A stretch of 64,000 nt of DNA from Schmidtea polychroa (Eukaryota): contig CM097885.1 of the NCBI GenBank assembly GCA_044892525.1, forward strand, positions 237,460,001 through 237,524,000. The letters run 5' to 3'. Numbering within the stretch: the stretch's first letter is position 1; each line of letters opens with the position of its first letter. Positions 35,773 through 52,069 of the stretch are shown here, in pieces. Under the pieces are notes generated by a model that searched no databases, had not been told where the DNA came from, and was given only the letters and a program-made list of their open reading frames with translations. The position numbers and the translations under genes were made by a program.

Positions 35773-38700
35773 CTATTTGGAACATCCTGGACAAAATATT
35801 TGATTACCTTTTCCAACAAAACTCAACCCAACAAGTGACTGATCACATGAGCTGCAAAAGAAACATTTATTGTGCCAATTTTCATTATTAGAAGTTATAA
35901 TTTCTTCTCCGTTTATACCTAAAATTTAAATCAATAAATTATAAATGAGAATAAATTCATTTTGAAAGCTATGGTTTAAAACAGGCCTTCTTAAACTATG
36001 GGTCGCGACCCCACATGGGGTCGCTTAGCATAATTCTGGGGTCGCGAGAGATTTTTAATGCCAAATATTTAAATACACGATTTTTTTTTAAATTAATGAC
36101 TATTTAATGTTTTTAACTCTAAAAATATTTTGTTTTCGAAAATTACTTTTCGATTAATTTATAATATATCAGAATAGTATAAAATTTATAGTATAAATTA
36201 ATGTACTACTTTTGTTTATTTATTAAAATTATATTAATTTTATTGAACTTCATTTAAAAGTAATATTTGTGAAATTTTCATGTGTTATTAAATTTAATGA
36301 CATTTTTAATGACAATTATTATATGCAATATGTTATTTTTATATATTTATTGGATTTTAGAATCAAAATAATTTTTGGCCATGGATAAATGGCTGAACTT
36401 AAATAAGAATGATAATGACGCAGATGATAATGCTACAAACTCTCCTCAGCAGGACAAAGTATTGAAAAACAGCCATTTAATGTGCGAAAAAGAAAATATG
36501 ATGAGTCCTTTCTTCAATTTGGCTTTACATTTCAAATTTGTAATGGTAATGAACAACCTCTTTGTTTGATCTGCAATGAATTATTGGCTGCGGAGAGTAT
36601 GAAACCATCAAAATTAAAAAGACATCTTGAATCAAAGCATGTTTCGTATGTCAATAAACCAAAAGAATATTTTGAAAGATTGTATAAATCTTTAAATAAA
36701 GAAAAAAAATTCTTTCAAAAATTTATGACCGTTAATGAAAAATATTTATTAGCGTCATATGAAATTTCATACTGTATTGCTAAAAAGAAAAAGCCGTTCA
36801 CCATTGGAGAAGATCTTATATTACCTGCTGCTATTAAAATGGTAGAAATACTACATGGAAGTAAATATGGCGATGATATTCGAAAAATTCCTTTGTCGAA
36901 CGACACTGTCGCGAATAGAATTTCTGATATTAACAAGGACCAATTAGTGCAACTTATTGCAAGAATTAAAGAAAGCCCAAAATTTTCAATTCAGTTGGAC
37001 GAAACAACGGATATTACTAAATTGGCTCAGTTGTTAGTATATGTCAGGTACGTTTATAAAAAAACGTGGAGGAAGAATTGTTATTTTCTCGTCCTATGAA
37101 AGATATATATTGTAAAGTTGACGAATTTTTAAAAACTGAAGGTTTAGAATGGAAAAATTGCTGTGGAATATGCACAGATGGTGCAAGAGCGATGACGGGC
37201 AAAAATATTGGTTTTAAATCATTTTTTCAAGCTGCTCCTAATGATCATATAACTTTTACTCACTGTCTTATTCACAGAGAGGACCTTGCATCAAAAAATT
37301 TAGCACCAGAGTTGAACGATGTGCTTCAGAATTAAAGATTATAAATTTTATTAAGAGCCATGCCCTTAACAGTCGCTTATTTTCAAATCTCTGCAAGGAT
37401 ACGGATTCCAACTACACAACTTTATTATTACATGCAGAAGTAAGATGGTTGTCAAGAGGTCAAAGTTTAAGAAGATTATTGTTATTAAAGGATGAAATCT
37501 AAATATTTTTAACCGAACGAAAATGTGAACTTGCTGCTTTTTTTCAAATGACTTATGGCTATCTAAGTTGTGTTATTTGTCAGATATCTTTGAGAAATTA
37601 AACGATCTCAACTTGTCTCTTCAAGGAAAAAATTGCGATATATTTACTTCTAATGATAAAATTGAAAGTTTTATTAAAAAGATCAACATTTGGAAAACTA
37701 GGGTAGAAAAGAATTCGTTCGAAATGTTTTCCAGTCTCGACAATTTTATAATCGAGAAAAATCATTGTAAAACTATTATCGCAATAATTATTGTAGATCA
37801 CTTAAAAACGCTAGAAACACAGTTCCGCACATATTTTATATTAAATATTGATTTCAAAAAGGTAGCTTGGATTCAAAAACAGTTCTGCCATTCAACACCA
37901 CATATTTATGTGAAGTTACTTTCTCAGCTTTAACACATTAAATCCCAATATCGTTCATCGCTAAAAAATGTTGAAGAGGCCTTACGTCCAGCAGTGTCAA
38001 ACATTCCACCAAGATTTAATTTGTTATGCAATAAAAAACAGGCACATCCATCTCATTAAATTTAATTTTAAATTTTTGTATGTTTCAAAACGAATTCTAA
38101 AACTATATTTTGTATTGTTACATAATAAATAAATCATCAAAATAATAATCAAAAAATACTTATTTATCTTTCTGTTATATTTATATGGGGTCGCTAGGAA
38201 ACTCGCAATCATAAATGGGGTCGTAAATGAAAAAAGTTTAAGAAGCCCTGGTTTAAAACCTTTTAGTAAACGACCAAAAATTTTGAAACAAATTTCTATC
38301 ACGCCCCAGCGTGTATAGATAGAAAAAAAATTTCATTGTTTTTTCATATTTTTATTAATTTCGTGAAAAATCTGCTACCTGTCAAAACTCACAAAATAAT
38401 TTCGTTCAAATTAGTCATTACTTACAAGGCGAAATTATTTCCGTAACTCAACCATGGCTGCATGTTTTCCTTTGATTAAACAACACCGAATTCAGGAAAT
38501 GTTTTTTTTCTTTAATAAAAGAATTTCACAGAATGAATCACTTTATAACCAATACACTGAATCAATCACTTCCCACACTCTGACATCCTAGGGTAAACTA
38601 CTCAAAATGCACTTCAAATGATTGATTCTTTGGGCAAAATAATGACTTCTCACAGAAGGCTTCCATAATTTATCTGATTTCTCTATAAATTCTCTTTAAT

Positions 38701-41700
38701 TTCTGGCTCTTCTCTAATTTTAAATTTCTCGCTATTTGTTCTCGACATTTTCCTCCTCTTGTCTAACTGCTTTCAAAAATCTGTGTAGATAAATTAATTA
38801 TTGATCAAATCCCAATATTTGAGCCGTTAATTATCGATTAAAATTAGCCGATCAACTGCTAGATAATGATCTAATAGTAAAAAATAGTTGCCGAGCTGTA
38901 AAGAGATTCTTATTTTCTAATTAAGCCTCGACCTAATAATAAACCACCATTGCGCTTGATCGATTGGCGATTATAAACAAATATTTTTTGAATAAGTGAT
39001 AAATCAATTTTTATTAATATAATCGTCTTTAACTTTTAATTTTCTGCTGCTCATATCTCTCCACAAAGTATTGATTTTTCAATTTAATTAATTTTTAACT
39101 AATTATACTCTTAATTTAAATCTTTGAGTTTAATCTGATCCAAGTTGAATTTTTCCACATTTGAATTTATTTGTGCATTTTTATGTAACCCCATCAAAAT
39201 AAATGCAACACGTTCCATAATAGCGCTAATAGGAACAATTTGTGTGTTAAATTTCGTTATCTTGAAAACGAAATTAACATGATAAAAATATAAAATAAAG
39301 ATTATGATAAAATGAAATCAGGATGGTCCGTTTAACACAAGAAAAATCCTATTTAAATCTATAATCTTGAAAAAAGCTAATAATTTAATGGCACGAAAAT
39401 TCAAATCGAAAAACATATAGCATACTTGATTTTGTTGATTATAGCAGCAAGTTATTTGCATATATTCAATGTTGTTAGAGTCATTCAAAAATTTTTATTC
39501 CACAGAACATTTAAAAGTTGTATAAAATATAGAAGTTGTTTTAAGTGCAGGGTTGTAAATTCAGTTTTAAGTTTTCTATTTAAAATTTACAAAATATGAT
39601 TTAGTAATGAGATCATTATGGAGTAATCAAGTGATTGGAAATCATTGGAGTAAATCCTTCCAATGGAAGCTAAGTAAGAATTGGTACTGAGTTGTTTTGG
39701 CAATCGAGCTTTTCTTTCTATTTATTCTTAACTAGATCATGAAGTAACAATATGTTATAAAGAAAGTTAACCATGGATGTAACCTGGCAAAATTTAAATC
39801 ATTTAGGGTCTCGACTCACAGTCAACAACTAGATTCATGAAAACAATTGCAATTCACAAATCACAACAGTACAAAGCAGTAGAGCAATACACACATTATT
39901 TTTTTCCTGGAACGTGCTTCAGAATATTATTTTTATGGAATCTAACATTTTCTGTGAGAATTTTTAATTAATATTTAAAAAACATTTTTGAATCAATCAA
40001 AAATCACTCGCAATCCAGAAGTTAGGAACCACTTATTTAAGCATCTATAACTATATGTAACTTAATTCAATTATTAGAAATAAAATTTTTAAATAGGTTT
40101 TTTATATTGTATTGATTGTTGTATTAAATTAAATAATTAATAAAAATTTTTTAAATTATTAAATTAAATTTTAAATGTTAAAATTTAAAAAAAAATAATA
40201 TATTATAAAAATAATTATTGTTTTTATAAAATAAACAAATTTTTATATATAATTAATAAATTTGTTTAAAATCCTTAATTTAGTGAGTTATTATATCCCA
40301 CCTGATGATGACAGGAAAACTGTCGAAATTAATCGTGAAAAGAATGTTTGATTGGCGTTATCTTATAATTAAATCATTGCCATGTATGTTTAACTATTTA
40401 TTAGAAATACATTTTATAATATTTTTATATGCTATGTATAATTTATTCTAAAGATAAGTTTTGAAATTTTAGTTAATATATTTAATCTATTTTTTTAACG
40501 ACTCATATTTTATCTAAAATTTTATGACCATATAGAATAAATATATAAAATATATATTTATTTAAAACTGTTGTGTACATTTTTTTAAATCGACAGTAAT
40601 TATCTTTTTGCAATTTTTTTCCCTATTAGTGCAGTTGTTTAATTTACTCGCTATTTATTAGTAATAATAACATTTCTATAGTATGTTATAAATGAATATT
40701 TTAGTTAATACAAACAGAAATAAATTAATAAAAATAATTGAACAAAGAAAATGAAATATGTTAAATTAATTGTTATTTAATAAGGTTGTAGTTAAAAATT
40801 GTCAGTTTTTCTATTTATAATTACTGAACAAATAACAAATTCATACAAACCCCATTACGCAAGTATATCTTATACTAGAAATATAGATAAGCAATTTTTA
40901 ATAATATTTCTAATTTATTTTTCAAATAACCTTTGGTTGTGTTCTGTTATCGGTCATACAAATGTGCTCAATAAGATTCATTTTCTATCGTAATGAAAAC
41001 TTTTAACTTTCTGTATAATATTACATTTTTTGCTCCACACATCAAAGTGAATTTCTTTTAGTGATTCACATTTCAAAATCTATTAATTTAACACTTTATG
41101 TCTATATTTAAATTGTAAATTCATAGTTTTAAGTTTTCAATTGAAAATTTACAACTTATGATTTATTAATGATATGTAAGTATAGTGTAATTGAGATGGT
41201 CACATAAGTGATTAGAGATTAGAAAATAGAGATTTTTGATTTAAAAACGTTAATTTAATTTTAATGGGTAATCGAATATACAAAATATATATATAAAAAT
41301 ATGGTACTTCCGTGTTATCTTACCCCCAAAAATTAAATTATAAAATACAATTAAAATAACAATATAAAAAATGAGAGAATACATTATTGATGACGTTATT
41401 GAACATGAATTTATTAAGGCTATCTGTGATTTATGTGATTATGTGAGTTTCAGTGGCGTAAACGTGTTCTAAGCAACAGTGTGGATGTGTTCGACACTAT
41501 TCTCAACAACATTGTGGTTTTCTGGCCACCTGGATGACCATTTACAAACTCTTTACAAACGTTTGCTGAGTTTGTAACTGTGATTTAGAAAATAAATATA
41601 ATAATTATATGTGTTCTTTTTTAATTTAATTTTTGGGGGTAAGATAACACGGAAGTACCAAAACTATTTTTAATTCAATAGTTAAGAAATTTTCGACTAA

Positions 41701-42850
41701 ATTTAGAATTTTTAAAGAATCAATAGATACAATCAATTAAACAGTTAAATTTATTTAAATAATCATGCCCTCGAAAGCAGTACCATTTTTGAATGAATTG
41801 TATCAATTCACATACATAGACAATAAATAATGTTTTATTAGAAACTTTGACTAAAAATGCTTTAATTAACTTTTATTGTTATAATTACTATAAATTTAAT
41901 AACTTATAACATCACCTATATAAATAAGTCATGAAATCACTCAGGACATATCCAACTTCAATTTCAATCGAATATAATAATGACAAAAAGCAATATTGCA
42001 ACAAATGAACCAAGGTTTGAATTATATTATAAATCCTGTTAAGATTAAAAAATTGTAATTGAAATTTATCGATTCAAATATTTTTCAAATAAAGTCATTA
42101 ATAAAAAGCAATTTACTGTGAATTATTAATCATTTTGGGCATACCTGTAATATATTCATTGCATCTGACACAAACTTTACAGAATTTCTCATTGTAACAA
42201 TTATCGCAGTAAATAAAATCATTTTTATATAGAAATCTTGTTTCTGATAATTTTATTTCACATACATTGCATACAAAGCATTCCGAATGGAATGTAGTAT
42301 CTCTAAATTTTATATAATTTTTCCAAATTCTCTATAAACACTTTCAAAAAATGAATACTCAATAAACACATACCTCTTGACATTTTTCACAATTTTCTGT
42401 AAATAATTCACCATAACAATTTTTACAATAACTCAACTTGTCATGCAACCAAAACGAATTTGGACTTAAAACATCCCGACAGTTTTGACATTGAAAACAC
42501 TTTCTATGCCAAACTAAATCTCCAAGTTTGAACTTTTCATCCCCGAGTTTAATTAAATCTTGACATGTGCTACAGACAACTCCAAATTTGTCATCGTAAC
42601 ATTTACAACAAATGATTTCATTATTTTCCAAAGTAAATAATATATTTTCCATATTTTCGAAACATATTGAACATAAAAAACAATTATTGTGCCAAATTAA
42701 TCCTTCAAATGATGCGTGCTAGAATCAAGTTATTAAATAAAAATTATTTAAAAGAATATTAAATAAAAATAAACCAAATTTTCTTACTTTGTCATGGAGA
42801 TCTATTGAATTTTCACATTTATTACATAAAATCTCATCGGATTTATCCAT
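35773..42850 (-). CDS. LIM-only protein with 4 LIM domains (FHL/Limpet-like), 4 exons, about 246 aa
   Basis: Exons 42850-42788, 42718-42374, 42331-42145 and 35918-35773, in frame (741 nt). Four C-x2-C...W/FH-x2-CF-x-C-x2-C...C-x2-C motifs; the last exon completes LIM4 (GINGEEII...NWHNKCFFCSSCDQSLVG...IFCPGCSK*). Confidence 0.87.
35982..38250 (+). mobile_element. Full-span Buster-type hAT transposon (ZBED5/TcBuster-like) with disrupted transposase 36381-38059
   Basis: TIRs CAGGCCTTCTTAAACT / CAGGGCTTCTTAAACT; perfect 8-bp TSD GTTTAAAA; GGGGTCGC subterminal repeats. BED finger (PLCLICNE..AESMKPSKLKRHLESKH), FSIQLDETTD, GICTDGARAM, HCLIHRE, AEVRWLSRG. Several frameshifts and stops. Confidence 0.93.
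40299..40337 (+). ncRNA. Minimal type I hammerhead ribozyme motif (Penelope-element type)
   Basis: CAC-CTGATGA-T-GACAG-GAAAA-CTGTC-GAAA-TTAA-TC-GTG: helix I CAC/GTG, perfect 5-bp helix II, palindromic helix III (ATTAAT), and an AUC cleavage triplet with predicted cleavage after 40334. Confidence 0.75.
41303..41659 (+). mobile_element. Merlin non-autonomous element, copy 2 (opposite orientation to copy 1)
   Basis: Same GGTACTTCCGTGTTATCTTACCCC TIRs; 8-bp TSD AAAAATAT/AAAACTAT (one mismatch). Internal sequence is nearly identical to the reverse complement of 31446-31785. Confidence 0.82.

Positions 42851-43042: not shown

Positions 43043-52069
<9,027 letters not shown>

Follow-up and report, generated by a model that had tools for sequence, protein, structure and literature searches.

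The hammerhead motif at positions 40299–40337 of the 64 000-nt stretch of DNA analysed here (the window) is very probably the 3′ pseudo-LTR (pLTR) end of a 5′-truncated Penelope-type retrotransposon, which lies antisense in an intron of a host LIM gene and is likely to be functionless. Two origins had been offered in the first-pass annotation, a Penelope-like element (PLE) pseudo-LTR or a retrozyme remnant; the former was borne out by a target-site duplication (TSD), by 5′ truncation and by a match to the intact element L122, whereas the latter conflicted with scattered 5′ ends and with continuity into a PLE ORF. The TSD, the high copy number, the intact master copies and the coincidence of the hammerhead with the start of an ORF go beyond that annotation. 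The window hammerhead belongs to the PLE minimal hammerheads and to the endonuclease-bearing PLEs, both of which are known kinds.

The motif (39 nt, plus strand) was confirmed as real and exact, with letters, core and helices I and II precisely as first described. As read from the sequence, helix I is formed by 40299–40301 and 40335–40337 (3 bp), and between its strands lie the core CUGAUGA (40302–40308), an extra U (40309), helix II (40310–40314/40320–40324, with a 5-nt loop), GAAA (40325–40328), a self-complementary helix III of six nucleotides (AUUAAU, 40328–40333, the palindrome of the UUAA subfamily) and C17 (40334), after which cleavage is predicted. The arrangement CUGANGA…GAAA…UH with helices I and II is that of the PLE minimal type I hammerhead. 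The short helix I, the extra nucleotide between A9 and G10.1, the G10.1–C11.1 pair and the small palindromic helix III are all shared with that class, as are thousands of mostly solo copies and pairs on opposite strands 100–700 bp apart; different are helix I, with 3 bp here, and helix II, with 5 bp here and 6 bp in sister families. When both strands of the window were searched with a loose hammerhead descriptor, this motif was the sole match, against one match in 150 random windows generated from an order-2 Markov model. Rfam returned no hammerhead family around the window motif at E ≤ 10 or on an intact element at E ≤ 1, a silence that reflects the limits of the models, since the family evidence stands independently of them. 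Together, A9, the extra U and G10.1 spell an AUG (40308–40310), the start of an 856-aa ORF in intact copies; a second in-frame AUG directly precedes it (40305–40307) and another lies 10 nt past the predicted cut (40344–40346).

A genome-wide motif search, which had been proposed as a check, gave 1913 matches to the exact 27-nt core (952 + 961) in the 781-Mb genome and none to a reversed control; the pattern lacking the extra nucleotide also had no match. The window copy alone therefore matters little, being one of about two thousand stubs. A DNA search with 281 nt gave 1133 candidates, 40 of which were scored and had 87–97 % identity, and 54 of 60 core-oriented loci shared the flanks of the window copy, from approximately 40078–40086 to 40403. 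Helix III was AUUAAU in 918 and AUAUAU in 812 of 1787 copies, so that 1730 carried one of two palindromes and only 57 another sequence. The swapped bases (UUAA versus UAUA) would form a 2-nt loop in a monomer and be paired in a dimer; the swap counts as one evolutionary event only.

Sister families with approximately 60–72 % protein identity and further variants were gathered, from which nine representatives were picked by hand, some of the rows being decayed single copies. Their invariant columns corresponded almost exactly to the hammerhead core, with U7 free to vary. Six of the nine pairs in helices I and II had changed on both sides (three of nine in a set of five rows), 88.9 % of the helix I/II cells paired compared with 21–46 % in slid controls, and G10.1–C11.1 was G–C in eight rows and G–U in one. 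None of 500 shuffles reached the covariation score of 0.543; the shuffle control is blind to relatedness, and the result is therefore support rather than a probability. The hammerhead interpretation had been said to fail if there were neither cleavage nor homologues with a conserved core and covarying helices, and the latter two properties were present in these nine sequences. The N-terminus of a distant homologue had no match in the genome.

Folding predictions suggested that the naked hammerhead RNA prefers inactive folds. The predicted monomer minimum free energy (MFE) was −9.3 kcal/mol, in a structure where the core pairs with the palindrome, compared with −5.6 kcal/mol for helices I and II. 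Catalytic-type homodimers were predicted at −13.4 and −14.0 kcal/mol and the UUAA/UAUA heterodimer at −7.8 kcal/mol, while the dimer MFE, about −19 to −20.4 kcal/mol, lay below that of the catalytic-type dimer. The predicted misfolding fits both the low self-cleavage activity reported for such minimal motifs in the accessible text of PMC4209133 and PMC6765202 and the way in which the Anolis Poseidon hammerhead depends on protein, its cleavage being described as protein-assisted (PMC11167929, in part). It would also fit a reading in which the motif is conserved merely as the first codons of the ORF, with the hammerhead fold inactive or incidental, as would the in-frame passage of the ORF through the motif and the account given in the available part of PMC11167929, according to which no Anolis reads start at the cut and insertion in vitro can do without cleavage. 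This coding-only reading is very unlikely: U7 varies, whereas no variation is seen in the core upstream of the AUG, the changes in helix II are compensatory despite altering amino acids, and the fold is kept in families that lack the AUG.

The element in the window is a stub of 315 nt (40083–40397, plus strand), with 86 % identity to the 3′ end of L122 over 330 alignment columns, the alignment beginning two codons before the ORF stop. It contains, in order, the last two ORF codons and the stop (40088–40096), an AT-rich spacer, the hammerhead and approximately 90 nt of the ORF start (the ‘tail’). The stub is flanked by a 12-bp TSD (40071–40082 and 40398–40409, plus strand); the first 5 nt of the right copy also match the usual 3′ end of the element (microhomology), and a 12-bp match occurred in one of 1500 random pairs of AT-rich windows. 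Among the first 30 pattern matches, 5′ ends were scattered from −9 to beyond −1500, and 3′ ends fell at +66 to +72 in ten, at +98 to +101 in ten and were unplaced in ten; these loci are not independent, since six are segmental duplicates and three pairs each represent both ends of a single insertion. Inverted copies were left uncounted in this survey of ends, where their detection gave false AT-rich matches. A further core was found in 11 of 54 oriented loci, and each case included a core on the opposite strand.

Many copies extend upstream into sequence coding for a reverse transcriptase (RT) and a GIY-YIG endonuclease. In the flanks, a search of which had been suggested earlier, RT/GIY-YIG ORFs adjoin many copies; the window, with its single hammerhead, has no tandem copies and, as had been claimed, no PLE ORF. 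Searching with the ORF N-terminus recovered three copies with open frames of 873 codons (L067, L122 and L123), in which the ORF counted from the stem-II AUG is 856 aa and the spacing from hammerhead to hammerhead is 2771 bp. Pfam detected RVT_1 in the ORF of these intact relatives (E = 1.2e-9, above the cut-off) and GIY-YIG below the curated cut-off (E = 0.019); a CxxC ahead of the YIG and two later histidines (the CCHH motif) were read by eye. The linker cysteines lie within a short repeat in the window's PLE family, and the sister family lacks them, which may point to Penelope/Poseidon. A single ORF with RT and, at its C-terminus, GIY-YIG, as in EN+ PLEs, was present in the intact relatives and not in the window copy. 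Truncated 5′ ends, pLTRs arranged in partial tandem or inverted, and a tail of 30–40 nt were also features of the family, in agreement with the accessible text of PMC8557442, where inverted copies, partial tandems and a 30–40-bp tail are counted with 5′ truncation among the hallmarks of endonuclease-bearing PLEs. By domain layout, the family probably belongs to the Penelope/Poseidon clade. No GT–AG joint was seen in the pLTR when four runs were compared with an intact element, where cover was thin. In L064 (3009–3200) and L161, the hammerhead ends of two PLE families lie approximately 120–190 nt apart on one strand, a layout which suggests that PLE families have inserted into each other's pLTR.

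A non-autonomous non-LTR retrozyme, in which a short hammerhead unit spreads via circular RNA, is highly improbable as the source of the stub. The window copy is indeed short and free of an ORF, metazoan non-LTR retrozymes likewise carry a type I hammerhead within a short repeat that is non-coding and has a long TSD (PMC7229834; bioRxiv 10.64898/2026.07.22.740005), and animal retrozymes have been proposed to derive from PLE pLTRs (the latter source), as far as the accessible text of these sources goes. However, the tandem units of 170–400 nt without a link to an ORF that characterize non-LTR retrozymes there were found neither in the window copy, with its lone hammerhead, nor in its family, which has no fixed 5′ end among the 30 loci and in which the PLE ORF follows on directly in many copies. 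The hammerhead is moreover minimal rather than canonical and colinear with an autonomous ORF, and its helix I has 3 bp compared with 6 bp in the canonical type I motifs described in the accessible part of PMC4209133. The 2771-bp units and the 856-aa RT/GIY-YIG ORF of the intact relatives identify the stub as a pseudo-LTR and not a retrozyme.

The closest parallel is Poseidon of Anolis carolinensis (PAc; Frangieh et al., 2024), for which the available part of PMC11167929 describes an ORF that begins at stem II, a cut 26 bp later and two RT start sites. Shared with PAc as described there are the one ORF that encodes RT and, C-terminally, GIY-YIG, the tandem pLTR–ORF–pLTR layout with a hammerhead in the pLTR, the beginning of the ORF at stem II and a cut approximately 26 nt downstream of it, the two classes of 3′ end that make the tail, and an AT-rich target containing ATT. 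In contrast to PAc, whose 3′ ends are placed near 111–118 in that text, the ends here lie approximately 60–66 and 92–95 nt into the ORF, a second in-frame AUG follows the cut, two palindrome subfamilies coexist and the host has an AT-rich genome of invertebrate type.

By analogy with PAc and from the anatomy of the copies, the stub may have arisen as follows. The parent element is most likely transcribed from an upstream pLTR, giving a transcript that would span pLTR–ORF–pLTR, and translation most likely passes through the ribozyme; its AUG would lie within the hammerhead or immediately past it. The RT–GIY-YIG protein would bind the RNA of the ORF start and nick AT-rich DNA, insertion likely proceeding by endonuclease-primed reverse transcription. 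If the cDNA started at one of two sites approximately 30 nt apart in the ORF start, the two classes of 3′ end would result, and early termination of the cDNA would leave the 315-nt stub. Cleavage after C17 would be no more than slow, with the hammerhead acting as a dimer formed via the palindrome and probably with help from the protein.

The stub lies within the last intron of a LIM gene on the minus strand, which we take to be FHL-like (35919–42144, 6226 nt, from GT at 42144 to AG at 35919). LIM-domain exons recognized by Pfam occupy 42113–42718, and the last exon (approximately 35780–35918), which carries a half-domain and the stop codon, completes the last, FHL-like LIM domain when the GT at 42144 is joined to the AG at 35919. 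A contig from run X3, the only one of the four runs examined that shows the joint, joins 35914 to 42141 and omits 6226 nt with CT..AC ends; other introns of the LIM gene were seen in contigs from X1 and X3. Both runs are presumed to be RNA, none being recorded as such, and their contigs carry no strand, ends or level. The last exon, the splice sites and the X3 joint sustain the intronic location given in the first-pass annotation, and the antisense orientation was likewise correct, the hammerhead being on the plus strand and the LIM gene on the minus strand. The LIM pre-mRNA therefore carries the complement of the hammerhead, which is predicted to keep only a hairpin.

That the copy has been co-opted as a regulator of the LIM gene, one that might cut an antisense RNA or pair with RNAs of the family, is exceedingly improbable. 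The gene around the stub is transcribed and spliced, and the motif is intact, but intactness is expected of a young copy among approximately 1900 identical cores, the motif is on the non-transcribed strand, and the same intron also contains a hAT element and a MITE. As a single antisense copy in an intron, the stub most likely does nothing. The hAT-like DNA transposon (35982–38250) has terminal inverted repeats, broken transposase frames and an 8-bp TSD (35974–35981 and 38251–38258); an X1 contig omits exactly its 2277 nt, so the insertion looks polymorphic. The MITE-like element (41302–41660) has 44-nt inverted ends and a very high copy number by contig depth in run X15. A 51-nt direct repeat (39563–39613 and 41125–41175) was also found, its copies 88 % alike and 1562 nt apart. 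Directly upstream of the LIM gene is another gene of several exons, presumably AFG3L2-like, which encodes AAA and peptidase M41 domains (43631–51890, minus strand).

The position of start codons varied between families. In the window family, an in-frame AUG was present at +10 past the cut in 25 of 30 loci. Families with an extra nucleotide other than U (658 matches, control 0) all lacked the stem-II AUG, and in 30 such loci an in-frame AUG was found at +7 past the cut in all 17 F2 loci, at +4 in five of nine F5 loci and at +10 in one of four others. A post-cut AUG is not universal: no in-frame AUG lies behind the cut in L124, L148, L136, L152, L125, L137 or L110, all of which carry the one at stem II, and the homologue P0009 (protein only) starts MM-x5-KYIV with no later Met there. 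Some families thus have the stem-II AUG alone, and neither position is universal. Sister families without a stem-II AUG thus mostly have an in-frame AUG 4–7 nt past the cut, which hints at a role in translation. Such a role is possible because, in some RNA viruses and HDV-bearing retrotransposons, translation is promoted when a ribozyme cleaves immediately ahead of the start codon (PMC13725137, accessible text).

It is conceivable, if rather unlikely, that the PLE hammerhead is a translation switch, in which the cut removes the start codon and turns the mRNA into an RT template, and the UUAA/UAUA swap separates subfamilies. The ‘extra nucleotide’ would then be the U of the ORF start codon, and cleavage would be protein-assisted; families that lost the stem-II AUG would have re-created one 4–7 nt past the cut, translated from the cut RNA; and the swap would block pairing of the younger subfamily with the older, as the weaker predicted heterodimer may indicate. 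The Anolis observations on reads and on insertion in vitro described above also speak against such a switch. Among the papers listed by a literature search, none dealt with the window's PLE family or with PLE hammerheads in translation, and Lunse et al. (2017) or the supplements of PMC4209133 may already cover the family. Its intact copies, its several sister families and its natural start-codon variants, in which the start codon moves from within the ribozyme to a site immediately past the cut, make the family a usable test system in which a translation-switch role is directly testable.

Several unusual hammerheads were encountered among the variants. L125, L137 and L110 (approximately position 1501 in L125 and L137) represent a more distant PLE family with an ORF in frame from the stem-II AUG and an atypical hammerhead, in which a 16-nt helix II region pairs poorly and an additional A precedes a different palindrome. 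In the F3 copy L112 (near 1031–1070), helix III differs at three positions, which alters the conserved 15.1–16.1 pair and leaves the helix self-complementary only via G–U pairs; this is a single copy, possibly in decay. L138 (1501–1530) and three more loci among the first 100 matches listed carry a compact hammerhead with a 4-bp helix II, apparently without the extra nucleotide and with a third palindrome, which may represent a separate retrozyme-like family.
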